DNA of 64,000 nucleotides from Defluviitaleaceae bacterium (GTDB lineage: Bacteria > Bacillota > Clostridia > Lachnospirales > WRAX01). Both the position numbers and the translations under genes were made by a program. Shown here piece by piece: positions 24,674 to 53,406 of this stretch. Within the stretch, counting starts at the first letter, position 1, and the number at the start of each line of letters is the position of its first letter. The notes beneath the pieces are model-generated. The model had not been told where the DNA came from and made no database searches. It was given only the letters and a program-made list of their open reading frames with translations. The DNA lies in assembly GCA_009779935.1 (NCBI GenBank), contig WRAX01000005.1, positions 24,248 through 88,247 on the forward strand. The letters are read 5' to 3'.

Positions 24674-24703
24674 CGGCATACCTCCAAATAATTTATTTGG
24701 CAC

Positions 24704-31549: not shown

Positions 31550-31561
31550 AGCCAAATACAA

Positions 31562-31610: not shown

Positions 31611-31625
31611 GTAATTATCCCGTTA

Positions 31626-33749: not shown

Positions 33750-33994
33750 GTTAAAAGATGGCCAAAATTGTGGCATGTGATTTATAACATCTTCTAAGTG
33801 ACCATTATGCAATATTGTTACACCAAATGATAAGCTGCATTAATAGCTTATGCATGCTCTTCCGCAAGGTGATGGAGTGTGGTGTAGTTGAAAATATTAG
33901 CTTTACTATCAGTGGCAAATATGATACAATATAAGTACAAAAAATTACAAAAAAACTGAAAATCCCCTATTTTATGGGGGAGGGGGGAGAAATT

Positions 33995-34922: not shown

Positions 34923-35090
34923 TCAATTATCGCCATCCTCTTTATCAGGATGCTTGTAATTAAATGGTGCCATATTGCATCCTGAATATGAGTATGCAAT
35001 ATGATAATTTAGCGATGAAAATGACAGGACAATAACCGCCGCAACAAGGAGTGTAAAAATACGGCTGGCAATTTTTTTCATATTTTTCAT
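34923..35090 (-). CDS. 55-aa secreted pro-peptide-like ORF
   Basis: MKNMKKIASRIFTLLVAAVIVLSFSSLNYHIAYSYSGCNMAPFNYKHPDKEDGDN; basic N-region, hydrophobic core, single Cys, acidic tail; RBS AGAGGGA; below the track cutoff. Confidence 0.45.
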   Translation of the reverse strand: MKNMKKIASRIFTLLVAAVIVLSFSSLNYHIAYSYSGCNMAPFNYKHPDKEDGDN

Positions 35091-35150
35091 CAAATCCCTC
35101 TTTTCCAGTGTTTTTATACTAACCCATACAGGTTACCACATGCAAGCATC

Positions 35151-35212
35151 AAAATCCATACCGATTTTTGAGAAAAAACGACAATTTTTTCTCAAAAATC
35201 GGTATGGATTTT
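35151..35212. repeat. perfect 28-bp inverted repeat with 6-nt loop
   Basis: AAAATCCATACCGATTTTTGAGAAAAAA cgacaa TTTTTTCTCAAAAATCGGTATGGATTTT. Confidence 0.9.
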
Positions 35213-35279
35213 TGTTTAATTTTATGCTACATTTAGAATCCGCATACAATAAATCAACCCCTACGCAAAAGCATTGACA

Positions 35280-35460
35280 TTGGTCTTAGTTTCGGCAATA
35301 ACCCTGCCACCGGCAATGGCATCATGGATGTTGGCAGGATGAACTTTTATGTGGAGCAGCAGACGACCTTCAACCTTCTTACCCCCCAACAAATCCACTA
35401 AACTGCGTAGCGCATGCTGTCTTTACGCTTCGGGGGTCGATGATGGTGTAGTTAGGTTTA
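35280..35460 (-). mobile_element. IS5-family transposase remnant (left, inverted copy)
   Basis: Minus-strand translation gives NYTIIDPRSVKTA and GGKKVEGRLLLHIKVHPANIHDAIAGGR in different frames; 35280-35434 is the reverse complement of 37482-37636. Confidence 0.7.
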
Positions 35461-35544
35461 GACTTTTGACCAAGTTTAATTTCGCTTTTTTCACCACACT
35501 ACATGGATTTTTATCATCAAAACGAAAGTGAAGGGGGGGTGCAA

Positions 35545-37137
35545 ATGTTAAAAATTTTAAAAATAATACTAAAAGAGCCGTCATCTAAGATAATTTTGGC
35601 ACTTTATCCTTTAATCGCTTTGCTGTCGGGTATTTTGCTAGTATATAGCAATGATATGCTCAGAAATGTTTTCAACAACCACATAATGCTATTAGAGTTT
35701 AACAACTTTTTATATAGCACCCTGTTTGTAGTTGGACTATTTGTTTCATTATTCCTTTTAAGGGTTGTGAACTCATATATTAAAGAGAAACTTCATCATA
35801 CAGGTGCGAATAATTTAATTGAGCACTACACAAACAAACTACTAAAAGCAGACTATTCATACTATCACAAAAAAGAAGCACCAGCAATTTGGGATAAGTT
35901 AGAAAGGTCTACTATTGGTACAGGGAATTTCTTTGGGTCGCTCATAAGTTCTATTAGTACAATGATAAGTTTTGTTTTTTATGCAATTGTTATATTTAGA
36001 ATAAATTTATTTGCAGGATTGATAACAATGATAGCTATTCCTATTTATTTCTTTCTTACTGTCGGATTTAATAAAAATTTCATGTCCTTGCAGATGGAGC
36101 TGGCTAATAGCATGGGGCAACTGGCTGTGGTGGGTCAAGAACCTCTCGAAAATGTGGTGAACGTAAAAACAAAAAATGCATATGGTTTTTTTGTGAATCG
36201 AATAATGAAGATACAAAGAAAAATATCCAAACTGTTTCGTAAGTTCAATGTTTTGTCTGAATATCATAATGGCATAACGGGTCTTGTGTCTGTCGTTGTA
36301 CCCATCTTGGTATTATTTGCTACATTGCAGGTTTCGGACACATTTACAACAGATATGGGGACAGTGCTGATACTTTATATTAACATACCGCTGTTTTTAA
36401 GTGGATTTACAAGCATTTACAAGAAATATATTATGTACAAAACCCACAGACATTTCATAAACGGTCTCCTAGAATTTGACGATATGCCCATAGAACATAG
36501 CGGGGAGATAGAAATAAATGACTTTGAAAACCTAGAAGTAAAAGGGGTTAAGGTGCGCTTTGACGATACACGAATTATCAGTATTCCTGATTTCGTTGTG
36601 AAAAAAGGAGAAAGAGTAATGATATTTGGGGAGAGCGGAATAGGCAAATCAACCATCTTCAACATTATAGTTGGCATTCATACAGAATACGAGGGCGATA
36701 TAATAATTAACGGTATTAATTTGCGAAATATCAGCACCTATTCCTTGCGTAATGTTTTTGGTATCGTTTTACAATCTGTCAATATTTTCTCCATGTCACT
36801 GGAAGACAATATCTTGTTAGGCATTCCCAATGACAATTTGAATGAATCAGTTAGCCTTGCCAACCTTAAAGAACAAATGGATTTTAAGGTCGACCAGGAA
36901 CTAAATAACAAAGTTGTGTCGGGTGGCGAAAAATCGCGTGTTGGGTTAGCTCAGACCCTAGCTCGCAATACCCAAGTGTTGATGATAGACGAAACGTTTT
37001 CCAGTATAGATGAAGGAATGGAAGAGCGTATAGTTAAGGGGCTTTTTGAAATGCATCCACACAAAACCTTTATATGTATCAGCCATCGCAGTTCAAGCCA
37101 GACTTATTTTGATAAATTCGTGGACTTCAATTTATGA
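35545..37137 (+). CDS. ABC exporter, fused TMD-NBD half transporter
   Basis: ATG 35545 after RBS GAAGGGGGGG; 5-6 TM then Walker A GESGIGKST, signature VSGGEKSRVGLA, Walker B VLMIDETFSSID; no N-terminal C39 peptidase domain. Confidence 0.85.
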   Translation: MLKILKIILKEPSSKIILALYPLIALLSGILLVYSNDMLRNVFNNHIMLLEFNNFLYSTLFVVGLFVSLFLLRVVNSYIKEKLHHTGANNLIEHYTNKLLKADYSYYHKKEAPAIWDKLERSTIGTGNFFGSLISSISTMISFVFYAIVIFRINLFAGLITMIAIPIYFFLTVGFNKNFMSLQMELANSMGQLAVVGQEPLENVVNVKTKNAYGFFVNRIMKIQRKISKLFRKFNVLSEYHNGITGLVSVVVPILVLFATLQVSDTFTTDMGTVLILYINIPLFLSGFTSIYKKYIMYKTHRHFINGLLEFDDMPIEHSGEIEINDFENLEVKGVKVRFDDTRIISIPDFVVKKGERVMIFGESGIGKSTIFNIIVGIHTEYEGDIIINGINLRNISTYSLRNVFGIVLQSVNIFSMSLEDNILLGIPNDNLNESVSLANLKEQMDFKVDQELNNKVVSGGEKSRVGLAQTLARNTQVLMIDETFSSIDEGMEERIVKGLFEMHPHKTFICISHRSSSQTYFDKFVDFNL

Positions 37138-37140: not shown

Positions 37141-37800
37141 GAACCCACTTTCAATAAAAGTCCTGTTTGTAGTGGGTGGCCTGCAGGTGCTTGCGAGTAA
37201 CTCAGAACCCGTTTTCAATAAATCCCCAATCCTGCCGATATACAATGATAAACAGGATGTGAAAACATATGAAATATCGCACCAAATACCCAATGACCTT
37301 ACCGCCAAGCAATGGAGCTCCATAAAACACTTATTCGAGAAAGGAAATCGTGGCAGTCATTTCCGTACACATAGCAAGCGAAAACTTGTTGATGCCGCAC
37401 TTTACCTTAACAAGGCTGGATGCCATTGGAGGCAGTTGCCAAAAGATTTTCCTAAGTGGCAGACTGTGCATTCATTCTGCTCCCGAAGCGTAAAGACAGC
37501 ATGCGCTGCACAGTTTAGGGGATTTGTTGGGGGGTAAGAAGGTTGAAGGTCGTCTGCTGCTCCACATAAAAGTTCATCCTGCCAACATCCATGATGCCAT
37601 TGCCGGTGGCAGGGTTGTTGCCGAAACTAAGACCAAATACCCCACAGTCAAGGGTATTGTTGGTGGTGCCGGTTTTCGTGGCACTTTCAAGAAAGCCCCA
37701 GAAGCGATCTTAGTGAATTTGATTTTGGCTTTGGAGTTTTCGGCAAAAAGAACCCCCCACAAATCGGCGGCCCCGGCGGCGGCAACTGGACTATAATACC
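37141..37800 (+). mobile_element. IS5-family element remnant with internal deletion (right copy)
   Basis: N-terminal domain LTAKQWSSIKHLF...LYLNKAGCHWRQLPKDFPKWQTVHSF joins directly to RSVKTA; later KKVEGRLLLHIKVHPANIHD in another frame; two GAACCCnnTTTCAATAAA copies at 37141 and 37205. Confidence 0.7.
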
Positions 37801-37979: not shown

Positions 37980-39341
37980 ATGAAAACAAAAATCCCCAAA
38001 ACCATCACAATCCTAACTCTACTAACACTAACCATGGTCTTCTATGCCTGTGGGGGTACCGAAGTAGAGTGTGGATACAACGACGACGATATCGGCAATT
38101 ATAATGATTATAAAGCCAAACATGACTATGCGTACATAAGCATACAACCCACAGAAGACGAACTTAGACATCAAGTATCACAACTTTTGATTGAAGACCT
38201 GGAATTACTTTACAAAGATATGCGTTCAAACATTATGGCTCTTTCAAATGCAGTGTATAGACGAACCCAGCACGAAGTAGGGTTTGGCATTGATATTTGG
38301 AGAAGCATGAGGCGGATTATTGAAAATCTTGAAACTGGAAGCGTGCAGTTTGGTGCAGGTGTGACGGATTTTGACGAGATGCTTGCGGCCGGCTCGCAGC
38401 ATATAGTTAGTCGATTGAATTTTTAGGTCATAACACATCTGGCCTACTGCATCTTGGGGCATCCACCGAGGGCTTTGCGGGAATTGGGTGGGATGACCAC
38501 TATGGGTCCATACTCGTCCGTCCGTTAAGAACATATCAATCCATTCAAGAAATTGATACTTCATTCAACCCCTAGGCATGGCACCAGCAAAAGCTTAATA
38601 AGTGGCAATATTGCGTATTTAAGAATAGAATCTGCTTTAAATATAGATTTAGACAGAAATAATTTAATGCAATTTTATGAAGAAATACAGAATTATAGCC
38701 ATCTCATTATTGATATAAGAAATCATATGGGAGGGCATTATTTTCATTTTGCTGACGTGGTAATGAGTCCACTTATAGAAAGTGCCGTTCATGCAACGTA
38801 TTATCAATTTTTTACAGAAGGAGAGCACCGTGCTTGGCAAATGGCAAATGTGGATGCATTGTGGGACGAATTCTATGAAATGGGTTGGCGCACTATGGAA
38901 GTTACGAATTACGAAGCTTCCGTATTTGTATCAGAAAATAACATGATATATTTTAACGAAAGTGATTTGGGCTATCTATCCTATGCCACAAGATTCCGAT
39001 ACACAATTCATCCTTCGTACACAAATTTTCCTTTCAGAGGCAAGGTGTGGTTGTTGATTGACGGCGCACAATCAGCAGGAGTAGGGGCTGCCATATATGC
39101 CGAAACATCAGGATTTGCAACAACGGTGGGCAGACCAACAGGTGGCGTTACACATGCGGAACGAACTTATTTGAGATTGCCAAACTCTGGGGTGTATGTA
39201 CATGTAGATGTAGGTTATATCGTAGATGCCAATGGCCGCTCTGTGGTAGAATTTGGATGGCCACCCCAAATACCCAGCCGCCCGGGCTTGGATGCTTTGC
39301 AGACCGTACTTGCTTTGATACAGGAGGGCTATGGGCAATAA
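37980..39341 (+). pseudogene. S41-like peptidase lipoprotein, disrupted by frame changes
   Basis: Lipobox MVFYAC; three pieces in frames 0/2/0 (37980-38426, 38426-38575, 38553-39341); C-terminal piece has IIDIRNHMGG and aligns with the intact paralogue at 47308. Confidence 0.6.
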
Positions 39342-39547
39342 AAAATCAGAAAATTATCGGGGACTGGTTCTTGGTGCTTACAGTCCGTTCATTTCAAAAA
39401 ACAAAATTGAAGAGGAATGAGGTGTGTCAATTTTTCAAAAATTCCTTCTGATATTTTAGGGTGGTAGGTGTTGGGCCGAGCGGTTATGTGAGCATGATTG
39501 GATAATTTTGAGATTTGTAGGCATAAAACAGAAAAAGGGGTGAAGTC

Positions 39548-40954
39548 GTGGCTTTATTGCATAACAATTTAATAATAAATAAAAACAGCGAAAGATTTAC
39601 ACCTTTTCTAATCAACCTACTGTCCGGAAGAAGGCGATTGCTTAAAGATGATGAATTTCAACTCATAAAATCCATGGCATTAAAACAGGACTTGGCGGAC
39701 TATACTGAGGATGAGTTAATTTTATTCGGAAACTTAAAGGCGGAGAAGCAACTTTTGGAAGAGAATGAACGCATAATGATTGAAGAGAAGATGAATGATA
39801 TAGGTTATTTTCATACAAACACGGACATTCCTGATGAAATTGAATTTTCAATTCACTTAACGTGGAAGTGCAATATGAGTTGCTCCTACTGCATTGCCGG
39901 CTCGTATGTTGGCAATGATTTGACCATAACGTCAGAGCATGTGGATAGCATCTATAACTTCTATCTAAATTTTATGAGCGAAGCTGAGCTTCAAGCAAAG
40001 GTTAAGAGCATTGGAATATCTGGCGGCGAACCCTTGCTGAACTCTGAAACTGTTGGTGCCCTGAATTACATAAATAAAAAATGGCCAAATGCTAAGTTAG
40101 GAATACTTACAAATGGTGTGAATTTGTTGAAATTCTATCAGCACTTACCTTTGAGAAATATCGAGGAAGTTCATGTTTCTTTAGATGGCTTAAAAGAGAC
40201 TCATCTGGATAGGTGATACAGTAACGAAAAAGTTTCACCAGATATCTACGATAATATAATAGGTGGCATAAAAAAACTTTTAGAAGATGAAATTTCAGTA
40301 ACGATTAAAAGCTGCATTGATAAAAATAATTATAGAGAACACCAAGAATTTAAGAGCTTCTTAAAAGAAGAGGGTATTACCACATCATCTTTTTGTACAC
40401 ATCAGAATTCTCATATAATGGACTTTAATAATCATTTAAACATAGATGAAAACTCCAATAGCGTAGAGGACATACGAAGAATAAGGGAATTTGTCTTTCC
40501 TGACCTTGCCTACATGCCACCTTTTTCTGACCTTGCTATTTTATATCAGATGATGAGTCGAATAAGTGACGAACCTTTCATGCCAAAGCGCATGAGGTGC
40601 AGTAGCGGCTTCTTATCAAAATACGCATTTGCACCAAATGGAAAAATATATTTTTGCACCTGCAACACTGCGAGTTCAGGAATGATAGGAGAATATTATC
40701 ATCAAATGTCAATCGATAACTCTGTGATATCTGGGCTTGCGCACAGGAGTGTGATGCAAAGTGATGAGTGTAAAAAATGCCCATATAAATTTGTTTGTTT
40801 GGGTTGTTGTCCGAAAAACTCAGAAGGACAGCTTGCAGATATGACAAAGATGACCTGTGGTGTATTTGGGTTTCCTGAAATTTTAGATAATATTGAGTTT
40901 GACTACCGCACAATTGCAAATGTCAAAAATAACTCAGATAGAAAGGTGGTTTGA
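39548..40954 (+). pseudogene. radical SAM/SPASM peptide maturase 1, single in-frame TGA
   Basis: CNMSCSYC (CxxxCxxC), GGEPLL, C-terminal SPASM Cys pattern (YFCTC...ECKKCPYKFVCLGCCP); ORFs 39548-40216 and 40418-40954 share a frame that is open across 40217-40417. Confidence 0.8.
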
Positions 40955-40956
40955 CC

Positions 40957-42530
40957 ATGAAGAGATTTTTGCTTTCCACTCTGGCGTTCTTCATGTTGCT
41001 ATTTTTTGTTGCTTGTAGCAACAATGAATCGGAAGCTGATGACTACAATGACAACCACGAAAACGAAGCGAAAGCTATAATGGTGGTTGATATCGAGTTT
41101 AATAATGCCAATCCAATAATGGCTCGCATAACCAACTATGCTGTAACAGCACAAATCGGAAACAGAGCTTATTTTTTTCATGATGCTGATGAAGCTGCCA
41201 CAGAATTTGTTAATATTGCAGAAGCCATAATACTGCAGCTGGAAAATTACATAGCAATACCATACTTTCGACTGCAAATTTATAACACACCTAATCCTAA
41301 AAACTATCGATTTAGCCATGTGGAGATCAGTGTAAATTTTGATAACAACGATACCTTTGGATGGCTCGCCAACCAACTTTCCCGTAACCACTTGCCCATG
41401 TGGCTGTCGGTAGGGTTGGAAGCTTACGTAAAAACGAATTTAGGCATTTTTGCACCAACCGACAGTAGCTTTTTATCAGGTACTCATTTTAGCGACTTAT
41501 CATTCGCTCCTAATATGCAGCGAACCACCGAAAGAAACATTGCTATTAATATGGCTTATGATTTTACAAGCCACTTATCGGAATCAGACATACTATTAGA
41601 TCTTGTTGCATTGTATCAAACAGGTCATACGTATCAAGCAAATGAAAAAGCATCACGGCATTTTTATAACCACTTCGGGTGGCATATGCACACAGCCATG
41701 ATAAACATGGTCAACTCAACGATTGCGATAACAAGTGGAGTAGATGTCATAACCTTCTTTTTCAATTGCCTGAGCGACATACCGCACATTAATGATATTG
41801 CAAACTACATAGAATATATACGCAATGCGATTGATTTTACTGTGGATTTTATGGCGCAGTTTACTGATTTTGAGGCTGGTGATATAAGGGTTGATATTTA
41901 CTATGATGAGGAAGCCACAATAGCTTTCGCATTTAATGACTGGATAACCATAAGAGGGGCTTTAATATTAACTGGATGGCTCACGAAGTGGTGCATGCGG
42001 TTCTATATTGGGTGTATAGCCAGCAGGGTATTCGTCCACCCCGTCATCTTGAAGAAGGATTTGCCATGTATGTTGATTCCATTTTTATCCTTTCGGAAGA
42101 ATTTGACCATCAACTTGCCCATTTGAGCCATCTTGAAAATGAATTTGGTGAAAATGCTCTCAGAAACATGGTCAGTAAAGAGATTGACTTTGCTTGGCAC
42201 TTTATATCACACTATCGTCTAACCCGAATGGATTATTACTACACGGGGGATTTTGGGCATCGCATCCCATACTCAGAAGTGGGGTCGCCATACCACATCC
42301 CAGCTATTAACAGGCACGAAACGGCTGCTTCTTTTGTGATATACCTTATACACACTCATGGCATCGATAGCTTTGTACATGTACTTTGGGATACCCACAA
42401 TTTTTATCATACATACGGAAGGGATATACATGGTATGGTTGAAGAATGGCGGGAGTTTTTGCACTACTTTGTTGAGAATCATGAATATTATTACGAATGG
42501 GAATCGATATCCCAAAGCTTTTGGGGATAA
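40957..42530 (+). pseudogene. MA-type (HExxH) metallopeptidase-like lipoprotein 1, frameshifted
   Basis: Lipobox LLFFVAC; LPMWLSVGLEAYV; frame change at the G4 run 41956-41959; downstream frame carries MAHEVVHAV...LEEGFAMYV. Confidence 0.65.
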
Positions 42531-42572
42531 TCATTAATTCATTTGAATGTTTACGGATCAGTTGTACTTGAA

Positions 42573-42886
42573 ACCAAGAAAATATGGGGTTGACCAACTC
42601 ATGCAAGCACTTACAAAGGAGGAAAAAACATGAAATCAAGCGATCAAATGACATCTATAATCGACTTAATGTGGGAGCCAGAAGAAACAGTGGAACTATT
42701 GTCCCCTACAATGACGCAGCAGTGTATGGATATGAGTTGTTATCCTGGCATTACACTCCCTTGGCTGTGTATGTCATGTTTTCCAATGAGCAGTAATCGA
42801 AATTGGATTTGTTAGTTAAAAGCTGAGCAAAGAAGCTGCTGCGTTACAAATACATCAGCGGTTGGTCAACCCTATATTTTCTTGGT
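42573..42886. repeat. 26-bp inverted repeat pair flanking precursor gene 1
   Basis: ACCAAGAAAATATGGGGTTGACCAAC 42573-42598 and GTTGGTCAACCCTATATTTTCTTGGT 42861-42886; 25/26 complementary. Confidence 0.85.
42630..42815 (+). CDS. Cys-rich precursor peptide 1 (61 aa)
   Basis: RBS AAAGGAGG; MKSSDQMTSIIDLMWEPEETVELLSPTMTQQCMDMSCYPGITLPWLCMSCFPMSSNRNWIC. Confidence 0.7.
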   Translation: MKSSDQMTSIIDLMWEPEETVELLSPTMTQQCMDMSCYPGITLPWLCMSCFPMSSNRNWIC

Positions 42887-42901
42887 TTTGGAGGATGTAA
42901 A

Positions 42902-43117
42902 ATGGAAAAGAGTTTAGATACAGCAAACTCAATAACATCTATCATCGACTTGATTTGGGAGGTAGATGACGTAGCAGAAGTGGTTGTGCCAATGATGAAC
43001 AAGGCTTGCATAGGCAATAGTTGCAGCATGAATACAAGGTCTCCACAAAATCCTCCCGCTTCCACCTTGGGCGGGTCCTCAAGGTGCATTAAATCCACAA
43101 AAAGGAGTGGCGTTCAC
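42902..43117 (+). CDS. Cys-rich precursor peptide 2, no stop codon before the next gene
   Basis: RBS GGAGG; MEKSLDTANSITSIIDLIWEVDDVAEVVVPMMNKACIGNSCSMNTRSPQNPPASTLGGSSRCIKSTKRSGVH runs in frame into the lipoprotein ATG at 43118. Confidence 0.6.
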
Positions 43118-44539
43118 ATGAATGTAGCTAAAATTTCATCAAGATTAAAGTGTATTAGTAGGTTGCTTATTGCTATATCGGCATGTGTAGCATTAATACT
43201 ACTATCTGCTTGTAGCGAAGAAGCTAATGTTGCAGAACATTACAACCCAGAACCCACTATCATGGTAGAATTTGTCGAAACAAACCCCATAATACAGAGA
43301 ACCACAGGATATACAATCACCACACAGGTGGGTCGCAGAACATATCTATTTGAACAAGATGACCCAGTGGCTAACACCGACTTCATTAATACCGTAGAAG
43401 CTATAATCAATGGACTGGACCAGTTTATGGACATACCATACTTCCAACTACGTATACGTCACACCACAAACCCGCAAAATTACCATTTTTCTGCAACAGA
43501 GATTAGCTTTAACCTTGACAACGACGATACCTTTGGATGGCTTGCGCATATTTTGAGCCGTGGCAGTATGCCCATGTGGTTGTCGGTTGGATTAGAGGCT
43601 TATGTTAGGGCAGGATTGGGGTTGTTTGCGCCTGCTTCGCACAACCCTTCATTTGCATTGAATAATTCGGTATTTTTGCCTTATCTCTGGGGCACGGAAG
43701 AGCACACACAAGCTATTAATGCAGCTTATCATTCAGTGGTAACAAATGGTCACTTAGAAGATGTTATAAATCACATGCCACAATTTTGGCTATCTTTCAA
43801 TTTAATAAACAACAGCATTACTGCCACCAAAGATATGCTCACAGTAAACTTTGTTTTTGAGCATATCGGCGACCTCATATCTCTTGACGATATTGAGCAA
43901 TATATAGCTTATATATCCGATGCCAAAATGTTTGTAACAGACTTTTTTACTCAGCACAGGAATTTTGAGCTTTCTCCGATAGAAATTACCATAAATTATA
44001 CCAACACCAACACTTTTCCATTGGACATGTCGCTTCCTCGACGAATTTACATAAATGATAAGAGTTATGTTTCTGCAACGCCCGCACTGTTGGCTCACGC
44101 AGTGCTTTTGGATATTGATTCAGAAAATTTGCCAGTTGGTGCATTGCGCCATGGGATTTCCAACTACTTAAGAATCAACTTTAACGCTTCTGATAATTTC
44201 ACTCATGTGCTGCCTCATACAGATGCCGGCGATAGAAGTAAACGTCAAGAGCATTATCGTAATTTGCGTATTAATGGGAGTCACGCTTTAGCTTACAACC
44301 ATTTCGCCAACGGTTATCCTAACTATTTTAGTTACAACTCCAGTGCGGGTAATTTTAATATCGGCACTACCGATACTGCCCATTCCTTTGGCTTGTATTT
44401 GATAGATACATATGAAGTAGAATATTTTTTGGATGCCATATGGAATGTTGAAAATTTTGTAAATGTTTATGGTAGGGATGTTCACGGCATGATTGATGAA
44501 TGGATGATTTTTTTGAAAGATTTATTCAGCACCGAATAA
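43118..44539 (+). CDS. MA-like lipoprotein 2 (catalytic motif degenerate)
   Basis: Own RBS AAGGAG; lipobox ALILLSAC; paralogue of 40957 (FGWLAHILSRGSMPMWLSVGLEAYV); HExxH position reads AHAVL. Confidence 0.7.
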   Translation: MNVAKISSRLKCISRLLIAISACVALILLSACSEEANVAEHYNPEPTIMVEFVETNPIIQRTTGYTITTQVGRRTYLFEQDDPVANTDFINTVEAIINGLDQFMDIPYFQLRIRHTTNPQNYHFSATEISFNLDNDDTFGWLAHILSRGSMPMWLSVGLEAYVRAGLGLFAPASHNPSFALNNSVFLPYLWGTEEHTQAINAAYHSVVTNGHLEDVINHMPQFWLSFNLINNSITATKDMLTVNFVFEHIGDLISLDDIEQYIAYISDAKMFVTDFFTQHRNFELSPIEITINYTNTNTFPLDMSLPRRIYINDKSYVSATPALLAHAVLLDIDSENLPVGALRHGISNYLRINFNASDNFTHVLPHTDAGDRSKRQEHYRNLRINGSHALAYNHFANGYPNYFSYNSSAGNFNIGTTDTAHSFGLYLIDTYEVEYFLDAIWNVENFVNVYGRDVHGMIDEWMIFLKDLFSTE

Positions 44540-44604
44540 ACTAAGGGATTCTAAGAGGAGTATAGGGTTAGCTAAATTTTACTTACACTAAGGAGGAATT
44601 GAGT

Positions 44605-44793
44605 ATGGACTTAAAAAAGATTGAAATTTTGATTACACCGGTCATCGACCTTATATGGGAAGTTGATATTATTGAAAACACAGAATTTTTGCCAACCAAC
44701 ATGGTTGTAACTTGCATGGATATTAGTTGTGGTGGTTTTGGTCTTGTTTGTGGGGGTTCCTGGAAAACCCCCATGTGTCGCCCGTTAGGTTAA
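44605..44793 (+). CDS. Cys-rich precursor peptide 3 (62 aa)
   Basis: RBS AAGGAGG 8 nt upstream; MDLKKIEILITPVIDLIWEVDIIENTEFLPTNMVVTCMDISCGGFGLVCGGSWKTPMCRPLG. Confidence 0.7.
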   Translation: MDLKKIEILITPVIDLIWEVDIIENTEFLPTNMVVTCMDISCGGFGLVCGGSWKTPMCRPLG

Positions 44794-44885
44794 TGTTACA
44801 AAAGTAGTTTAACTTTTTGGAGCAAAACCCTATACTACTCTGGGATCTAATAACTTCAAAAACTTCGAGCAACGGAGGTTTGGGA

Positions 44886-46260
44886 ATGAAGCTTATAAGG
44901 CATGTAATTCCAGTGGACATAAACAGTGAAGAAAAGCTGATGATTAACTCCTTAAACGGTATTATTGATAAAATTAGTGTACCTGTTTATGAAATCTTTC
45001 GAAAGTGGAGAGGGGTTGAGGAGATAGTTCCCGAATGCGAGGTGGAGGTCGCCTTATTTGAAAGCCTCAAAATGCGTGGGTATCTATCAAATAGCTCAAA
45101 AGATGAGGATGTTGTGAAAGAGAAACTTGTAGCTCGCTTACGGGAAATAAGCACCAAGCAAAGAGAGGCGTGCAGGAGCATCACCTTTATCCCTTCATAT
45201 AACTGCAACTTCCGATGCCCTTATTGCTTTGAAGGAGAAAACACTCTTAAAAAGGGAAATTATGACACCAGATCAAGTGGATGCCGCATTAGAATTGGCT
45301 GGTGAAAACTTGGAAAGCGTGGGGTTTTTTGGTGGAGAGCCTTTGTTGGCATCCAATAAAAAAATATTAGAATATATTATATCAAAAACCAAAGGGAAAA
45401 CTTTTAGTATCACCACCAATGGATATCACTTGGAGGAGTTTTTTGAAATCTTGTCACCACTAAAATTTTCTGAAATCTTGGTTACACTGGATGGAGGAGA
45501 GGACACTCACAATAGTCGTAGGTTTTTGGTGGGCGGCAAACCGACATATAGCAAAATTTTGAAGGGTATTGAAAAGTGCCTGTCAAATGGCATGCCCATA
45601 TGCATTAGGATGAATCTGGAAAGTAGTAATCTGGAAGAAGGTCAACTCTTGCAACAAGAACTTATGAATAGATTCCAAAAGCATGGAGGATTGGTTTCAT
45701 TTGAAATGGGAACCATTTTTGGAATACCCGAAGAAGACAAAGTAAACATTCTCACCCAGCTATATAAAACAGATGCTATATGTTCGCCAGAAGAAAAGCG
45801 AAAAAGAAATAGCATGGTGGGTAGATTTAATCCCATAATAAATAGCATGACCATAGGCACAAAGCTACGACCAACATACTCATTTTGCTCCGCTCACATA
45901 AGCAGCTTCATTGTTGATCCCTATGGAATGATATATGCCTGTCTCCCATCAGTCGGCAAACCCACCCTATCCATCGGCACATACTACCCCAACATCGAAT
46001 TTAAAGAAAAAAGCATTTACACCCGCAATATAGAAACAATCTCCGAATGCAGAGAGTGTGTCTATTCATTACTTTGTGGCGGGGGTTGCCCTTTGGGAGT
46101 TATGAGATGTGAAGATGATATAATGAAACCGGAGTGCTTCTCCATTAAAAACCAAGTGCATAACATATTGCCCAGGTTTTACAACATTAACGAAGATGCT
46201 AAAAATAAAAACAAAGAAACCAAAAACCAAAACCAGCCAGCAAAAGCTTGTTCTTTGTGA
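44886..46260 (+). pseudogene. radical SAM/SPASM peptide maturase 2, 1-nt frameshift
   Basis: CNFRCPYC lies in the frame of ORF 44817-45305; GGEPLL and the SPASM pattern (ECRECVYSLLCGGGCP) lie in the +1 frame of ORF 45229-46260; switch within 45236-45260. Confidence 0.8.
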
Positions 46261-46285
46261 TTAAGATTTTAAGTGGAGACTACCT

Positions 46286-47266
46286 ATGATGACAAACGCC
46301 CTAATATTAGCTGACATTGAAGGTATCATCGGTGTTAATGAAACATTTGGTGATAATGCCGGTGAATTGTTCACACAAGAAGTGGAGCTATGTATCAATG
46401 TCCTGTTGGAAAACGGCATCCACAAAATCACTGTTTGCGATGCCCATAACAAGGGGGACATGATTTTACCCAGAATTACCGAGGGGCGTGATAATGTCAA
46501 GCTGGTTTCGCAAGTCCGCAGTGTTTGTTTTGCAGAAAAGTATGACTTTGCAATAATGGTTGGATATCATGGAATGGAAGGCAGCCCCGGCATTTGGCCC
46601 CACACATACCGCTATGATATTAAGCAGACTTCTATTTTCGATAAAAGATTAGGAAAAAACATTCCCATTGGCGAGGTGGAGATTGGTGCCAGATGGCTGG
46701 GCTTTCATGGTGTGCCGGTTATTTTTGTATCTGGTGATAGAGAGGCGGCTTACGAAGCCAATCAATTCAACCCATACAGACAAGCTTCTTGTATAAGAAC
46801 ACTCCTTCAAACCGAAGAAATAAAGATTGAAGTTTTGCGTGATAAATTAGTGCAAGATCTCAAATCATCTTTAAAATTGGACTGGGATTTATGCTTGTCC
46901 TGTGATAATAGTCCCATTCTGGTTGAGTTTTACCACTCTGAAACCGCTGATGCCTTAGTGGCAAAGGGATATACCAAATTCATCAACGTAGATGGCAGCG
47001 AGGGCATCACATTCAAAAGCTGTTCTGAACTTGTTAGCGAAATCCATCACATAGCCGGCCTCTTAAATCAAATCGGATTTGAGGTGGAAACCGCCAACAT
47101 CGCTTTCTTAAAAGAGGTACGTGAATTAGCTAAAAATCTTGATAAAGATGCAGTTGCAAATTCGGAGGCCGGGCCACTACTTAGCACCAGCCTTACCCTG
47201 TTGGACAAGGTGGCTCGTGATAAAGTTATGGTGATTTTGAGGAGTATGGTGAATGGAAGTGTATAA
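46286..47266 (+). CDS. M55-family D-aminopeptidase (DppA-like)
   Basis: LADIEGIIG, VCDAHNKG, MVGYHGMEGSPGIWPHT and IGEVEIGARWLGFHGVPVIFVSGD align with B. subtilis DppA motifs as I recall them. Confidence 0.8.
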   Translation: MMTNALILADIEGIIGVNETFGDNAGELFTQEVELCINVLLENGIHKITVCDAHNKGDMILPRITEGRDNVKLVSQVRSVCFAEKYDFAIMVGYHGMEGSPGIWPHTYRYDIKQTSIFDKRLGKNIPIGEVEIGARWLGFHGVPVIFVSGDREAAYEANQFNPYRQASCIRTLLQTEEIKIEVLRDKLVQDLKSSLKLDWDLCLSCDNSPILVEFYHSETADALVAKGYTKFINVDGSEGITFKSCSELVSEIHHIAGLLNQIGFEVETANIAFLKEVRELAKNLDKDAVANSEAGPLLSTSLTLLDKVARDKVMVILRSMVNGSV

Positions 47267-47307
47267 ATCAATCCCCCAACACCCCAACCCGAAAGGTGGT
47301 AAATTAA

Positions 47308-48726
47308 ATGACAAAAAACAAAAACAAAAACATCAACCCAATAGCCCGCACCGGCCTCTTAGTTCTGGCGATGGTTCTTTTTCTATTAATACCCACAAGT
47401 TGCGGCAGCCAAAACAATGAAGATGAAACCCGTTTTGTCTTAGAGTCCGACTGCCCTTATCTTTACGACTTCCATTACTTAATACGGCTTATGGAGGATA
47501 CATTTCCTCACTTTGGTGTAGTGTATAGAAATTTTGGAGTGGATGTGAGACAACTGGCAGATGAAGCCATGGAGCGCATCGCAAACCATCCTGGTATGGA
47601 CGACAATATTCTTTTTGATGAAATTGCAGACCTTTTTATTCCACTTTTACCAGTTGTTCATGCGCAGCCCTTATTCTACCAGACCTTTCCACTCTGGAAA
47701 TACAGATTTGGAGGAGCTGGCGTAGGGCAACTAATAAGCGAAGGTAGTGCATTCAATGCAAATACTTTTAACAATGTGCGTTCAATAGAATTTTATGAAC
47801 GCCAAAGGCAAGCCGGATGGGACATGACACCACAAACGGAAGAAGCGTTCGCTTTGCGACCTGCTATACACACTGACCTTGATAATTTTCCTGTACAACC
47901 CGCATGGAATCGAATAGCAGCCACCTATATAATCGAAGAAGGCAGAATTGCTTATATGAACATACCTACTTTTATGCATCATGGCGCAGGCGGAATAGAA
48001 AGGGGAAGTTTGTTTAATTTCTACACAGAAATACAGGATTACGAGCACCTTATTATAGACATTAGAAATAATGGAGGTGGATATACCTTTTTTTGGGAAA
48101 ATAATATCATGCTACCACTATCGAACAATGCGCCCGTTGTACCAATATATAACTTTTTCCCCCAAAGCGAACGTGGCTTAAAGTTTGCACAAATTTTTGC
48201 TGATGACCACTACCAGAAAGGTATAGGAGCAGATTTGGTGACCTCAGAGTCATTTTCTGCCAATTATGCATATCCTATATCTATATCAGAGTTTTTAAAT
48301 GATAGGCAATTTCCATACCTAAACCAATCCGACCTACAATACTTAGGATATGTGGTCCCACTTACCCAAAGTGTAAGAAATCTAAACCCCATGTGGTATG
48401 TGCCGGAAATACCTTTCCATGGTCAAATATGGCTTTTGATAAATCCCGTAAACGCTTCATCTGCCAGCATGTTTGCCCGCCACGCCAAAGATTCTGGTTT
48501 TGCCACTTTGGTGGGGGAGCAAACAGGTGGACATTTTGGTGCTGGGACACTTCGTATTTTCTTCCCCCTACCCAACACAGGCATTATTGTAACTTGGGAT
48601 GTAGGCTACAAAACCGACCAATACGGAAGATCATGGGAAGAATTTAGAGTAATGCCCCACCACCAAAACATGCCTGGTATGGATGCGCTTGAAACTGTGC
48701 TTTTTCTTATTAATGAAGGGTATTGA
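47308..48726 (+). CDS. S41-like peptidase lipoprotein (intact copy)
   Basis: Signal/lipobox LLIPTSC; IIDIRNNGGGY, NASSASMFA, GEQTGG motifs of C-terminal processing peptidases. Confidence 0.75.
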   Translation: MTKNKNKNINPIARTGLLVLAMVLFLLIPTSCGSQNNEDETRFVLESDCPYLYDFHYLIRLMEDTFPHFGVVYRNFGVDVRQLADEAMERIANHPGMDDNILFDEIADLFIPLLPVVHAQPLFYQTFPLWKYRFGGAGVGQLISEGSAFNANTFNNVRSIEFYERQRQAGWDMTPQTEEAFALRPAIHTDLDNFPVQPAWNRIAATYIIEEGRIAYMNIPTFMHHGAGGIERGSLFNFYTEIQDYEHLIIDIRNNGGGYTFFWENNIMLPLSNNAPVVPIYNFFPQSERGLKFAQIFADDHYQKGIGADLVTSESFSANYAYPISISEFLNDRQFPYLNQSDLQYLGYVVPLTQSVRNLNPMWYVPEIPFHGQIWLLINPVNASSASMFARHAKDSGFATLVGEQTGGHFGAGTLRIFFPLPNTGIIVTWDVGYKTDQYGRSWEEFRVMPHHQNMPGMDALETVLFLINEGY

Positions 48727-48880
48727 TTGAGTAGGTGTGGGATGATGAATTGAACTCCAAAATTATACCACTATGTAAGTGGGTACTGACTTTATCGCTT
48801 ATGCCATGGTATAATTCCGTTAAATTCTATGAATGCAAATATACTTAATATTAAGAATATAGTCACGGAGGCCAAACCCC

Positions 48881-50707
48881 ATGAAACCCCTAACCCTCTG
48901 CAAACCCTATCTACTGCAACATAAATTAAAACTAACCCTATACATAACAATAACCCTATTAGCCACTGCCATATCCATCCTAACCCCCTTCATCATAGGT
49001 AACTTCCTTGATCACCTAATCGAAGGGGGTGATGTGGGGGCTATTTTGCGTTTTTGTGCAATATTTGGTGGGTTGGGGCTTTTGCGTATATTCAAAAACT
49101 ACATAACATCCCTTATATACGTTAGGATGCAAACCCAGATGAGTTACAACTTTCACCATGATATCACAAAACACATCCAAAGCCTTTCACTCTCCTACAC
49201 CAACAATCAAGACAGCACCTATCTAAACCAACGCATAAATAGTGACACAGGCAGCCTGATTGTATTCTGCATAACCATCCTTAACAACGTACTGGTAAAC
49301 CTAATTATGATTATTGCACCCTTTATCATACTGCTAACCATGAACTGGTTTATTACGGTTTTATTGGCCGGCTTTCTTTTGTTATATGCCGTCTTATATA
49401 CGGCCTTCAAAAAACCCATTTACAATGCAGGGTTTCGCTTAAAAGAAGCGCAGGGTAAGTTTTTCTCCACCCTTTTTGAACAATTAAAACACATCAAACT
49501 CATTAAAACAAACTCCATACAGCCCGAAATTAGCCGTAGGACTGATAGTGGATTTGTAAGATTTAAGGCGGCAGCTGTTCACAACCAAAAAGTAAGTTAT
49601 GTGTACTCCGGTATGGATGGATTTATATCCACACTCGCACAGATCGCCTTATTTGTGGTTGGTGGCTTGCAGGTGCTGTCCGGTAATTTCACCATAGGTA
49701 TGTTTACCATCTTTACCAGTTACTTTACCATGATTTTGGGTTCCAGTAGATATTTCTTTGGCCTTGGGGCTTCTTATCAGCACACCCTTGTCGCTTATGA
49801 TCGGGTCAAGGAAATATTGAACCTTAAACCCGAGGGTGGGGGTAGAAAGATAATTGACAGTGTTAGCAAGATACAAGCAACTGACCTAAGTTTTTCTTAT
49901 GCGGTTGGAGATACGAGCCACAGTTTAAGTCAAGACCAAAAAGAAAGGCGAGAAGGAAACAACCGGAAAAAAGATGACCCTCACGAGGGCATTAACTCAC
50001 ATAATATCAAAAATCATAATCCAGCCCTAAATTTCAACGAAACAGGCAGCACTACCAAAGCGAATCCTAAGGTGAACGACATCATCGAAACAAAGCGAAA
50101 AAGGGTTCTTGAAGGACTTAGTATAGAACTAACCAAGGGTAAAATTTATACCCTATCCGGCTCAAATGGCTCGGGCAAGTCCACGCTTATCAGTTTAATG
50201 ATGGGTATGTATGCTGATGAATATGATGGCCGTATAACCTATGACGGCACAGATATTAAAGACATAGACATGATTGCCGCAAGAAGAAGCCTTATTGGAT
50301 TTGCAGAGCAAGAACCTACACTGATAAAAGATTCTATTTTGTTTAACCTTTGTTTTAATGAGTCGCTCGATTCTCTTTGTTCATCAAACCAACGCATCAA
50401 CAATCTGGACAAGCATATGCAAACCCTTGGGATGAATGATTTTATTGATAAAAACGGATTGCATTTCCCGCTAAACGAAAGCAATACCAACACCTCCGGT
50501 GGAGAGAAGCAAAAAATATCCATCTTAAAGGTACTGTTAAAAGACCCACCTGTTATGATTTTTGATGAGCCTACATCTGCACTTGATTCTGATGCCACCG
50601 AAAGGTTTATGGGATATTTGCAGGGTATTAAAAGTAATAAGATTATTGTTATAGTTACGCATGATGGGGTTGTGGAGGAGATGTGTGATGAGAGGGTTTG
50701 TTTGTAA
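48881..50707 (+). CDS. ABC exporter (TMD-NBD) with a hydrophilic insertion at the start of the NBD
   Basis: 6 TM; Walker A GSNGSGKST, signature TSGGEKQKISILK, Walker B VMIFDEPTSALD; no C39 domain. Confidence 0.85.
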   Translation: MKPLTLCKPYLLQHKLKLTLYITITLLATAISILTPFIIGNFLDHLIEGGDVGAILRFCAIFGGLGLLRIFKNYITSLIYVRMQTQMSYNFHHDITKHIQSLSLSYTNNQDSTYLNQRINSDTGSLIVFCITILNNVLVNLIMIIAPFIILLTMNWFITVLLAGFLLLYAVLYTAFKKPIYNAGFRLKEAQGKFFSTLFEQLKHIKLIKTNSIQPEISRRTDSGFVRFKAAAVHNQKVSYVYSGMDGFISTLAQIALFVVGGLQVLSGNFTIGMFTIFTSYFTMILGSSRYFFGLGASYQHTLVAYDRVKEILNLKPEGGGRKIIDSVSKIQATDLSFSYAVGDTSHSLSQDQKERREGNNRKKDDPHEGINSHNIKNHNPALNFNETGSTTKANPKVNDIIETKRKRVLEGLSIELTKGKIYTLSGSNGSGKSTLISLMMGMYADEYDGRITYDGTDIKDIDMIAARRSLIGFAEQEPTLIKDSILFNLCFNESLDSLCSSNQRINNLDKHMQTLGMNDFIDKNGLHFPLNESNTNTSGGEKQKISILKVLLKDPPVMIFDEPTSALDSDATERFMGYLQGIKSNKIIVIVTHDGVVEEMCDERVCL

Positions 50708-51321: not shown

Positions 51322-51376
51322 GCAACTTCTGATACTGTTTGCTATTAACCGCAAACAGTATCAGAAGTTGCTTTTC
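51322..51376 (+). terminator. strong terminator at the right edge of the island
   Basis: Perfect 21-bp arms GCAACTTCTGATACTGTTTGC/GCAAACAGTATCAGAAGTTGC, 8-nt loop, then TTTTC. Confidence 0.7.
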
Positions 51377-51661: not shown

Positions 51662-52372
51662 ATGTCCAACGAAATGCCTATTTCAGTATTGATTAGAGGT
51701 GACACCCACATTCTTTACTTTGATGATGGCAAAATTGACGATGACGGCAATATAGAAACGGCCTATATACGGGTCACCCAAGGTGTTCTTTGTGCAGGCG
51801 ACAGCGAAGTTAAGGTTTCTGTTAATGACTATATTTCTAAGGCAGATTGGATATTACTTAGAGAATATAGACAAGCGGCTCAAAACGACTTTCTTAGGCG
51901 TGATACCTTTATTGATGTCAGCGAGGAAGTTAAAATGATTGCTTCGGGATATATTGAGAATAATGGGCTTGCCCTTGAGGGTGTGGAGGATTTGCGTGGT
52001 GCTGGGCTCATCCTTAATTATCGCCCGAGCAAAATCTTTCCTTGCGATTGCGACGATGCTGGATTTTTTGGAAGAAGGGTTCATCTTACCGGCTTTACGC
52101 ATACCCAAAAAACACCGTGGTTTTACAGCGGGATATCAGACAGGATAACCCTTTTTGTTTGCAACAGGGGCAAGGATGATGTGATGATTGGACTTGAAAG
52201 AAGTCCTGATTCGGCAAGTATCATTAAAGATGCTCAGGAGATATGCGTTGGCCCGGGGCAAACCGCAGAAATTACTCCTTACAAGTTTTCGCAGTTTATA
52301 AGGCTTACAGCAAGCTCTGAAAAAAGAAGGATAAACTGCGAGGTATGGCATCAAGCGCAGCTAAAAGTCTGA
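51662..52372 (+). CDS. hypothetical protein, no signal peptide
   Basis: RBS AAAGGAGG; 236 aa; C-terminal about 70 aa similar to the C-terminus of the next ORF. Confidence 0.6.
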   Translation: MSNEMPISVLIRGDTHILYFDDGKIDDDGNIETAYIRVTQGVLCAGDSEVKVSVNDYISKADWILLREYRQAAQNDFLRRDTFIDVSEEVKMIASGYIENNGLALEGVEDLRGAGLILNYRPSKIFPCDCDDAGFFGRRVHLTGFTHTQKTPWFYSGISDRITLFVCNRGKDDVMIGLERSPDSASIIKDAQEICVGPGQTAEITPYKFSQFIRLTASSEKRRINCEVWHQAQLKV

Positions 52373-52463
52373 TAATTTGTATAACGCCCCATTTTGAGAC
52401 AAGAACCCTTTTGCATATACAAGCATAGTATGTACTACAGTCAAGAAAAAGGCTGAAAACACA

Positions 52464-52988
52464 ATGCAAAAGGAGGTGAAAAAGATAAATTCACTTGTTT
52501 TTAACACAACTGCCGAAGAGCTGCGTACCAGTGTTTATGGCTATAACCAAGGCACAAGCACGTTGCAGCTGTTGCAGTTGAATAGCGATGGAGAATTGCT
52601 TGTTTCGGGAGATTTTAGCCTGTCAAGTAACGTAACAATCGCAAACACGCTGCTGACTGTGTTGGTGTCCGGCAATCAATTCACAGCAAACACTCAAACG
52701 CTGGATGGTGTAACATCAACAGGCATTGCTCTTGCTGCAACGGATATTTCGCAATTGAAAACAGCGACCATGTTTGTTGACAACACAGATGCCAATCCGA
52801 TTACTGTAACTTTGCAATTAAGCCCTGATGGAACAACGTTTTTTGACGACCCCCATTATACGGATGTTGTAGTAGACGGAACAACTTCTACTATTATGGT
52901 AGTCGGAATCTTTGCACAGTATGCACAAATCGAATATGATGCGGGAGCAGGGGCTACATTCGCTGTGTATTACAATGGGCAAGCGTAG
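52464..52988 (+). CDS. hypothetical Ser/Thr-rich beta-type protein
   Basis: 174 aa; TMFVDNTDANPITVTLQLSPDGTTFFDD... segment parallels TLFVCNRGKDDVMIGLERSPDSASIIKD... of the previous ORF (I recall a DUF6385-like family, unverified). Confidence 0.6.
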   Translation: MQKEVKKINSLVFNTTAEELRTSVYGYNQGTSTLQLLQLNSDGELLVSGDFSLSSNVTIANTLLTVLVSGNQFTANTQTLDGVTSTGIALAATDISQLKTATMFVDNTDANPITVTLQLSPDGTTFFDDPHYTDVVVDGTTSTIMVVGIFAQYAQIEYDAGAGATFAVYYNGQA

Positions 52989-53040
52989 GGCAGCAACCAA
53001 CACTTTTTTGAAATTTGTCTTGCAAGGAGGTGAAATAGAA

Positions 53041-53406
53041 ATGTTTGATTTTGAACGTGAAAACAGACACGGAAGAGAGCGTGATGCCGTGCGTGAACAT
53101 GAGCATGAATGCAGACACGAACACAGGAATGAGCATGAGCATTTTACAAAGCACAGAAAGGTTTGCACTGTAGAAACAAGCGAAGATGTGACCATCACAA
53201 CACCTGTCATGCTTAATGCTTATGTAGATAGCTGCAAAGTTGAAATTGAGTGCAGAGGACACGATATAATAAGAGAGTCTTCTCGCAGACCAAATCACAG
53301 CAGGTTTAAAATACGCCAGAAAATGCATGTACACATCCCTATTGACTTCGTTGCTGAATGCAATGTGGGTGAAGGTCGAGTGGATTTCGATTTTGATGAG
53401 GAGTAA
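53041..53406 (+). CDS. His/Glu/Arg-rich hypothetical protein (121 aa)
   Basis: RBS AAGGAGG; MFDFERENRHGRERDAVREHEHECRHEHRNEHEHF...; the track ORF from 52912 is an upstream extension. Confidence 0.55.
   Translation: MFDFERENRHGRERDAVREHEHECRHEHRNEHEHFTKHRKVCTVETSEDVTITTPVMLNAYVDSCKVEIECRGHDIIRESSRRPNHSRFKIRQKMHVHIPIDFVAECNVGEGRVDFDFDEE

Follow-up and report, generated by a model that had tools for sequence, protein, structure and literature searches.

Does a 12.7-kb run of genes in a Defluviitaleaceae bacterium encode an undescribed system for making a ribosomally synthesized peptide that is post-translationally modified (RiPP), and if so, does this copy of it still work? The genes lie in a 64-kb stretch of contig WRAX01000005.1 (GenBank assembly GCA_009779935.1, positions 24,248–88,247 of the forward strand), hereafter the window, to which all coordinates refer unless a related locus is named; L-numbers (L005, L013, and so on) denote the related loci or contigs that were compared with it. 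They comprise two radical S-adenosylmethionine (rSAM) enzymes with SPASM domains, peptidases of the S41, M55, and MA (gluzincin) types, short Cys-rich open reading frames (ORFs), and an ATP-binding cassette (ABC) exporter. We consider it probable that the region from about 33974 to about 51370 (table 1) is a copy, now decayed, of a RiPP cluster linked to quorum sensing and belonging to a family without a name. An ORF map together with Pfam and NCBIfam scans confirmed the order in which the original prediction, made from the sequence without database searches, had placed the genes between 37980 and 50707 as well as their common location on the + strand. The Pfam scans likewise upheld its assignment of two S41 proteins (Peptidase_S41 in both genes) and of an M55 peptidase (Peptidase_M55 in 46286–47266) and its statement that the exporter lacks a C39 peptidase domain, which holds for both exporters of the locus.

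The strongest evidence for a RiPP family comes from the three short Cys-rich ORFs. These are genuine precursors, as had been proposed, given that they have a leader in common, whose DNA pattern (IDL[I/M]WE) has three occurrences in the window and none in 100 shuffles, and that their homologs lie beside rSAM genes elsewhere. In other loci, about 40 related small ORFs were found, in which an xEPIIDLIW(E/S)xEE leader is combined with a core that is rich in Cys and Gly but otherwise variable; all of those with readable surroundings adjoin genes of these rSAM/SPASM enzymes. Members of this precursor family are 40–70 amino acids (aa) long, have an acidic linker after the leader, and mostly end the core in an aromatic residue followed by zero to two residues and Cys (aromatic-x0-2-Cys). 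Precursors with the same leader adjoin rSAM homologs in L005, L013 (Anaerosalibacter massiliensis ND1), L015, L091, and L092; they are thus conserved in homologous neighborhoods, the point on which the original prediction was to stand or fall. When metagenome contigs were scanned with the leader DNA pattern alone, 57 matches were obtained, of which only eight, distributed over seven loci, are short ORFs that are rich in Cys and have the motif near the N-terminus. System genes are present at all seven of these loci and at none of those with chance matches; six have rSAM genes of type 1 and/or type 2, as defined below, and on the seventh, the 1.1-kb contig L138, the one such gene is an incomplete MA-like gene. 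With a profile built on the precursor alignment, 35 small proteins were recovered among 5.8 billion, all of them unnamed or annotated as "hypothetical"; several come from contigs that equal in length those with rSAM2 matches. The precursors matched no NCBIfam model. A shortened variant of 38–41 aa (MKMKPIIxxxWNL...(H/Q)(Y/W)CCAC) was seen in Alkaliphilus transvaalensis, Tepidimicrobium xylanilyticum, and a metagenome-assembled Fusibacter genome; the loci of this variant (L007:9589-12522, L010:9561-11350, and L012:9692-11332) have rSAM type 2 alone, and the one from Alkaliphilus continues with a protein of 348 aa that contains a trypsin-like GDSGS motif.

The rSAM enzymes next to these precursors belong to two types, represented in the window by rSAM-1 and rSAM-2. 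Both contain the CxxxCxxC motif (CNMSCSYC and CNFRCPYC, respectively) and the SPASM Cys patterns Cx12-13Gx4C and Cx2Cx5Cx3C, and both match the Radical_SAM model PF04055 (39.6 and 62.1 bits; cut-off 29.5) and the SPASM model TIGR04085 (36 and 41.6 bits; cut-off 27), so that the domain calls made without database searches are borne out. The rebuilt rSAM-2 has 764 homologs, the intact ones being 440–450 aa in length, and none is named beyond "radical SAM/SPASM." No NCBIfam equivalog reached its cut-off with either enzyme. For both types the best models were CefB, Clo7bot, PapB, TIGR04463, and the SCIFF maturase, with 60–130 bits against cut-offs of 340–600: CefB, Clo7bot, and TIGR04463 gave 110–130 bits against 525–600, and the intact homolog P0002 scored 113 bits with PapB (NF047865; cut-off 340) and 75 bits with the SCIFF maturase (TIGR03974; cut-off 425). 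The sactipeptide maturase models scored lower still relative to their cut-offs (StsB 45 bits against 625, RumMC 35 bits against 720, with SkfB also far below), and the nearest solved structure is that of CteB (5wgg). Because the best models are those of Cys-rich peptide maturases, all below cut-off, and because CteB is the nearest structure, both rSAMs are placed by their sequences within the sacti/ranthipeptide-type maturase radiation and outside its curated families. The nearest relatives are thus all peptide maturases and not enzymes with a non-peptide substrate, and the proposal of a locus of RiPP type outside all named families withstood the comparison, given the conserved precursors that lack a model and the peptide-maturase affinity of rSAMs that fall below the equivalog cut-offs.

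As in ranthipeptide/SCIFF-type systems (CteB and PapB) and those of CefB, Clo7bot, and TIGR04463, the enzymes are rSAM/SPASM proteins of ~440–460 aa that have an N-terminal extension and contain CxxxCxxC as well as the complete SPASM Cys pattern, and a Cys-rich precursor with a conserved leader lies beside them. The extension, of ~100 aa, is conserved and aligns from position 1–6 of the CefB, Clo7bot, and TIGR04463 profiles. Unlike in those systems, the scores lie so far below the equivalog cut-offs that the window rSAMs are no members, the precursors match no model, and two different maturases regularly occur together, along with M55, S41, and MA-type lipoproteins and a cassette that contains an RNPP-family regulator.

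Comparison of the loci points to a recurring core that consists of a precursor, rSAM type 1, rSAM type 2, M55, and the ABC exporter; L151, with the order precursor, rSAM1, rSAM2, M55, ABC, is the minimal intact cluster. The set of Anaerosalibacter massiliensis ND1 (CCEZ01000074.1, about 85.7–92.4 kb) runs precursor, M50-like, rSAM1, rSAM2, M55, ABC. M55 is present in eight loci (the relatives are L005, L013, L014, L139, L151, L152, and L153), and orthologs of ABC exporter 2 in L091, L092, and L137 are 45–54% identical to it. The S41 and MA-type lipoproteins, the RNPP regulator with its pro-peptide gene, and M50 appear as accessories that vary between loci, as do SagBCD genes in some relatives. 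Within L137 (1526–10009) the same leader family is found with a SagC-like protein (ThiF), SagD (YcaO, above the NCBIfam cut-off), and SagB in place of rSAM2 and M55, and within L153 (2923–13168) a SagC-like protein, SagD (YcaO), and SagB are added to rSAM1, rSAM2, and M55. One leader is apparently common to rSAM and azole-forming machinery. These two relatives thereby resemble the thiazole/oxazole-modified microcin or linear azole-containing peptide (TOMM/LAP) systems with SagBCD; unlike in such systems, the window contains no Sag genes, and in the relatives the azole enzymes add to the rSAMs or replace type 2. A scan of the contigs of GTDB genomes with rSAM profiles gave five close loci among the 80 matches listed, and a search of plasmids gave no relative with more than 30% identity.

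The locus does not start at 37980, as had been predicted, but has further parts upstream from about 33974: the genes of an RNPP regulator, of a pro-peptide, and of another ABC exporter. The N-terminal part of the regulator matches HTH_3/HTH_19 and its C-terminal part matches RNPP_C at 24.4 bits, slightly below the cut-off of 26.5; the two halves align in different frames to the intact 310-aa regulator of L005, for which a precomputed RNPP_C match is on record. The pro-peptide has an acidic C-terminus (...APFNYKHPDKEDGDN). Equivalent small ORFs on the - strand come after the regulator in L091, L092, and L093, where they terminate in ...GPLGYPCPKDDD, ...APFGIIVPDDNDED, and similar sequences, and the pair of regulator and small secreted peptide stands ahead of related clusters in these three loci. 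In total, the convergent signal-peptide ORF beside the regulator is kept in four loci. The pro-peptide thus looks like a candidate cognate quorum-sensing signal of the regulator, in a cassette attached to the cluster. A terminator-like hairpin (34870–34893, - strand) follows the pro-peptide ORF. The streptococcal RaS-RiPPs (streptide and others) provide a precedent for an rSAM RiPP operon under quorum sensing, in their case by Rgg/SHP (PMC9389541), and they share with the present family an rSAM operon behind an RRNPP-type regulator and the gene of a small secreted signaling peptide. Unlike in RaS-RiPPs, the regulator is an RNPP-like protein of Clostridia with helix-turn-helix (HTH) and tetratricopeptide repeat (TPR) regions, the peptide is no SHP but a convergently encoded pro-peptide of 50–60 aa that has a signal peptide, the enzymes show no family-level relationship to StrB, WgkB, and others of that kind, and the exporters have no peptidase domain.

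Our proposal for the mechanism concerns the intact relatives. The precursor would be recognized through its leader by the type 1 and type 2 maturases, both of which most likely install thioether crosslinks of the sacti-/ranthipeptide type from core cysteines. The cytoplasmic M55 enzyme, the most constant partner of type 2, would probably trim the peptide, the C39-less ABC exporter would carry it out, and in Defluviitaleaceae the gluzincin and S41 surface lipoproteins would complete removal of the leader outside the cell. The RNPP regulator and the convergent secreted pro-peptide gene would set the operon under cell-density control.

The step for which the strongest alternative exists is the one assigned to the lipoproteins. 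Because the exporters lack C39, leader removal after export would be the most economical role for the MA and S41 lipoproteins. Both S41 proteins exceed the PF03572 cut-off, the prc/CtpA models remain far below theirs, and no PDZ domain was matched in either. The MA-like family numbers 148 representatives among 1.8 billion proteins; the proteins compared here are lipoproteins of ~440–630 aa, and the name given to it in the original prediction proved apt: PF13485 (Peptidase_MA_2) matches 11 of 35 representatives and the motif HExxH...EG(L/F)A (HExxH-x17-E) is kept in 30 of 35. MA-1 has HEVVH-x17-E; in MA-2, HExxH and EEGF of the family are replaced by ALLAH and RHGIS. An AlphaFold2 model of an MA-like protein, built from a 35-sequence alignment (pLDDT, the predicted local distance difference test, 82.6), matches the folds of M1 aminopeptidases, M9 collagenase, and EryP (7v9o), though weakly (TM 0.25–0.32, E ~1e-2). 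In their HExxH-x(17)-E motif and M1-like fold these gluzincins resemble the M1 leader peptidases of class III lanthipeptides (AplP and EryP), from which they differ in the weakness of the fold match and in being lipoproteins that form a small family of their own.

Lipoproteins such as LanI are surface immunity proteins, and it is possible, though it seems to us the less attractive choice, that the MA and S41 lipoproteins are not leader peptidases and instead confer immunity by binding or degrading the mature peptide, or else mature the RNPP pro-peptide. The window has two pairs of a precursor and an MA-like gene and L126 has two to three, a repetition that suggests peptide-specific partners; the 473-aa ORF of MA-2 has stayed intact despite loss of the catalytic motif, which fits a binding role; and S41 and MA genes are most frequent where an RNPP cassette is present as well, namely in the window, L005, L092, and L093. 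Set against this are the retention of HExxH...E in the great majority of MA-like representatives given above, the position of the MA-like gene between biosynthetic genes, within the operon, in L137 and L139, on whose contigs no RNPP gene is visible, and the absence of C39 from the exporters, which leaves another leader peptidase to be supplied. M1-type zinc peptidases are moreover known as lanthipeptide leader peptidases, and EryP is among the fold matches. We therefore retain leader removal as the likelier role. Within the exporter itself, residues ~330–400 of ABC exporter 2 contain a low-complexity insertion of ~60 aa near the start of the nucleotide-binding domain, and the Anaerosalibacter ortholog (L013:12429-14201) has an insertion at the corresponding place.

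A second alternative concerns the chemistry: one or both rSAMs may carry out a non-thioether reaction, for example epimerization to D-residues or formation of a C–C or C–N crosslink to the aromatic residue beside the terminal Cys, with the M55 "D-aminopeptidase" homolog as a stereospecific trimming enzyme. Such a scheme would make sense of M55 as the most constant type 2 accessory (eight loci) and of the aromatic-x0-2-Cys ends of most cores, and no curated thioether-maturase model reached its cut-off. M55 also aligns to DppA (1hi9), over its N-terminal half, and matches there the positions that we take to be the DppA metal ligands (D, E, H, H, E, arranged as DxE, H, H, E). The equivalog model for DppA, however, gave 67.8 bits against a cut-off of 430, and because this cut-off is not reached, the window M55 is classed by sequence as a family member and not as a DppA ortholog; membership in M55 says nothing certain on stereospecificity, and a link between M55 and RiPPs is absent from the searchable literature. 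Since the best relatives of the rSAMs are maturases of Cys-rich peptides or thioethers (CefB, Clo7bot, PapB, SCIFF, and CteB) and the cores are Cys-rich, we regard non-thioether chemistry as unlikely and thioether formation as the better assumption. Unlikely as well is the far-reaching combination of these ideas, in which the locus would represent a new RiPP class whose two rSAMs make two different modifications (e.g., a thioether plus an epimerization or a crosslink at the conserved aromatic–Cys motif of the C-terminus), with stereospecific trimming by M55, peptide-specific gluzincin lipoproteins as a new extracellular leader peptidase or immunity factor, and a leader portable between rSAM and YcaO.

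Two paralogous modules had been predicted, as would result if one unit of rSAM, MA, and S41 had been duplicated. It is true that each of these proteins occurs in the window as two divergent paralogs (rSAM 24% identical, MA 33%, S41 39% over the C-terminal half), and the precursors are present in three copies. The term "duplicated" is wrong for the rSAM pair, since the rSAMs are 42–66% identical to their own orthologs elsewhere; rSAM-1 shares 42–53% with type 1 orthologs (44% with the intact one of L013) as against 24% with rSAM-2. Ten other loci (L013, L014, L015, L091, L092, L126, L139, L151, L152, and L153) have orthologs of the two types next to each other, with one precursor per locus where any was found, except for two in L126. 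The notion of modules retains some merit in that either rSAM type is also found by itself, type 2 in L005 and L093 and type 1 in L137 and L147. Together these comparisons make origin by duplication very unlikely and indicate that rSAM-1 and rSAM-2 are two old lineages set side by side. Two SPASM-type rSAMs per cluster and Cys-containing precursors are also features of the sactipeptide clusters of ruminococcin C (MC1/MC2) and thuricin CD (TrnC/TrnD), and an extracellular protease is required for ruminococcin C to mature (PMC9389541). The present family is unlike these in that the RumMC, StsB, and SkfB models are far below cut-off, that there is usually one precursor for both enzymes, and that proteases are encoded in the cluster.

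As to whether this copy works, disruption had been noticed for the first S41 gene, which does contain two in-frame stops (TAG 38424 and TAA 38526), but the damage is far wider and extends to rSAM-1, MA-1, rSAM-2, the regulator, the stop codon of precursor-2, and the motif of MA-2. The in-frame TGA of rSAM-1 corresponds to Arg in the Anaerosalibacter ortholog (L013), the frameshift of MA-1 falls between 41916 and 41976, and precursor-2 and MA-2 form a single ORF of 545 aa (42902–44539). Overall, there are six independent lesions, comprising TAG, TAA, TGA, and two or three frameshifts. The split rSAM-2 gene (139 aa + 332 aa) was also called in L001 and L002, and its 332-aa part in L003. The split recurs in the ENA, Logan, and JGI assemblies, which in sequence hardly differ from the window; L003 departs from it in its last 80 bp only. 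Flanking housekeeping ORFs of 540–1100 aa run uninterrupted. Upstream of the regulator there is a fragment of ~150 bp with 87% DNA identity to 43695–43860, and positions 35280–35434 are an inverted copy of 37482–37636 with 97% identity. Because lesions of several kinds stand among intact flanking ORFs, together with insertion sequence (IS) remnants and the MA-2-like fragment, the window locus is a decaying, rearranged copy. With both maturases pseudogenes here, MA-1, S41-1, and the regulator inactivated, the catalytic motif of MA-2 lost, and the stop codon of precursor-2 lost, this locus probably yields no mature product.

Sequencing error was rejected as the cause in view of the several kinds of lesion, the three assemblies, and the intact flanking ORFs. 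Recoding of the TGA in rSAM-1, as selenocysteine or otherwise, was rejected because this codon aligns with Arg and because TAG and TAA stops are also found in the locus. That the locus is functional all the same, its stops and frameshifts being sequencing or assembly errors or being bypassed by recoding or slippage, is the weakest of the alternatives and hardly credible, for the homopolymer run that holds the rSAM-2 frameshift (A5G3A3, 45249–45259) and the intact M55, S41-2, MA-2, and two ABC genes are outweighed by six independent lesions of different kinds that use all three stop codons, by a TGA that replaces Arg and not Cys, by the same rSAM-2 split in the ENA, Logan, and JGI assemblies, by the uninterrupted long housekeeping ORFs, and by split genes in related loci (rSAM1 in L091 and L126, M55 in L152).

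Several points weigh against the interpretation of the locus as a decayed thioether-RiPP cluster. No RiPP recognition element was detected in the N-terminal ~100 aa of the rSAMs, where neither PqqD in Pfam (E ≤ 10) nor a PDB sequence profile gave a match. The thioether chemistry is deduced from Cys-rich cores and weak homology, with the curated models far below cut-off, and the protease roles from position, signal peptides, and motifs. The activity of S41-2 is uncertain because His stands where the Ser–Lys dyad of Tsp/CtpA presumably has its Lys. Some residual function is possible, given the long ORFs that are still uninterrupted in M55, S41-2, MA-2, and the two ABC genes. The three assemblies exclude an assembler artifact, which falls short of proving fixation of the lesions in the species.

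Decay and duplication of cassettes seem to recur in the family. The rSAM1 gene is fragmented in L126 (1–8853) and split in L091 (8611–10004), M55 is split in L152 (10315–11268), and L126 has tandem cassettes of precursor and MA-like gene in two or three copies.

The window is also covered by a 105-kb metagenome contig (ENA ERZ27257297 k141_1640169), and two of its proteins are identical to MCL2854535.1 and MCL2854536.1 from a metagenome-assembled Defluviitaleaceae genome. The features of the locus are collected in table 1. Its downstream end is probably marked by the hairpin at 51323–51370; a second perfect 20-bp hairpin with T-runs on both strands is located at 35158–35205, and the pair brackets the main part of the locus. 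The orphan MA-2-like fragment lies directly upstream of the regulator gene, and the inverted IS4/IS5 remnants flank the upstream ABC exporter gene on both sides in a composite-transposon-like arrangement. Further traces of mobile elements in the window are an intact IS110-family transposase (23507–24703, - strand) and an IS1595-type zinc-ribbon fragment (31482–31889, + strand). Downstream, 51662–53406 contains the genes of two adjoining DUF6385 proteins, 236 and 174 aa in length, along with a 164-aa ORF rich in His and Glu, which precede a GT2-TPR glycosyltransferase. An Rfam scan of 30000–56000 gave no match, and a promoter scan gave 68 sites against 57±8 in shuffles, which is within background.

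Table 1. Positions in the window of the genes, remnants, and hairpin that make up the locus, with the evidence for each (RBS, ribosome-binding site).
Feature	Position	Strand	Evidence
Fragment of MA-2-like lipoprotein gene, rearrangement scar	33717–33865	-	tblastn with MA-2 residues 193–239: 73–82% aa identity
RNPP-family HTH/TPR regulator, split by frameshift (33974–34393 + 34411–34917)	33974–34917	+	Pfam, alignment to L005
Secreted pro-peptide ORF, 56 aa, convergent with regulator	34923–35093	-	Signal-peptide-like N-terminus
IS4/IS5-family transposase remnant, inverted copy of 37482–37636	35261–35398	-	blastn, ORF list
ABC exporter 1, 544 aa, without C39, intact	35503–37137	+	Pfam ABC_membrane + ABC_tran
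IS4/IS5-family transposase remnants, two ORF pieces	37172–37796	+	Pfam DUF4096 "putative transposase of IS4/5 family"
S41-1 lipoprotein pseudogene	37980–39341	+	Peptidase_S41 47.2 bits (cut-off 24)
rSAM/SPASM type 1 (rSAM-1) pseudogene	39548–40954	+	In-frame TGA 40214
MA-type (gluzincin) lipoprotein 1 (MA-1) pseudogene, HEVVH...EEGF intact	40951–42530	+	tblastn, halves in two frames
Precursor-1, 61 aa, leader SIIDLMWEPEE, core ...CMDMSC...NWIC	42630–42815	+	
Precursor-2, leader SIIDLIWEVDD, core CIGNSC..., stop codon lost	42902–43117	+	In-frame read into MA-2
MA-type lipoprotein 2 (MA-2), 473 aa, ORF intact, own RBS, ATG, and lipobox LLSAC	43118–44539	+	Alignment
Precursor-3, 62 aa, leader PVIDLIWEVD, core ...CMDISCGG...	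44605–44793	+	
rSAM/SPASM type 2 (rSAM-2) pseudogene	44886–46260	+	+1 frameshift in A5G3A3 run 45249–45259
M55 (DppA-like) metallopeptidase, intact, without signal peptide	46286–47266	+	Peptidase_M55 PF04951, 92 bits (cut-off 25)
S41-2 lipoprotein, intact, identical to MCL2854535.1	47308–48726	+	Peptidase_S41 70.2 bits (cut-off 24)
ABC exporter 2, 608 aa, without C39, intact; conserved exporter of the family	48881–50707	+	Pfam
Perfect 20-bp hairpin, T-runs on both strands	51323–51370	.	Sequence

Neither the leader, the gene combination, nor a name for the family is described in the searchable literature as far as we found, and no NCBIfam or Pfam model names it; a link between RNPP regulators and radical SAM enzymes was likewise not found there, as was the case for M55 and RiPPs. 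The importance of the finding is limited by the many uncharacterized rSAM-RiPP families that exist and by the state of the window copy, a pseudogenized relic whose own value is lowered accordingly. What emerges is nevertheless a coherent and apparently unnamed RiPP family of Defluviitaleaceae and other anaerobic Bacillota, in which ~40 precursors with strong conservation of the leader are served by two dedicated lineages of rSAM/SPASM enzymes and M55 is a constant partner. Some of the samples from which it comes may be termite gut, to judge by one sample name. Its leader appears to be portable, being read by both rSAM and YcaO machinery, and the M55 family may have a role in RiPP maturation. 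The family is worth characterizing from its intact relatives, for which Anaerosalibacter massiliensis ND1 (L013) and L151 offer intact, expressible clusters.

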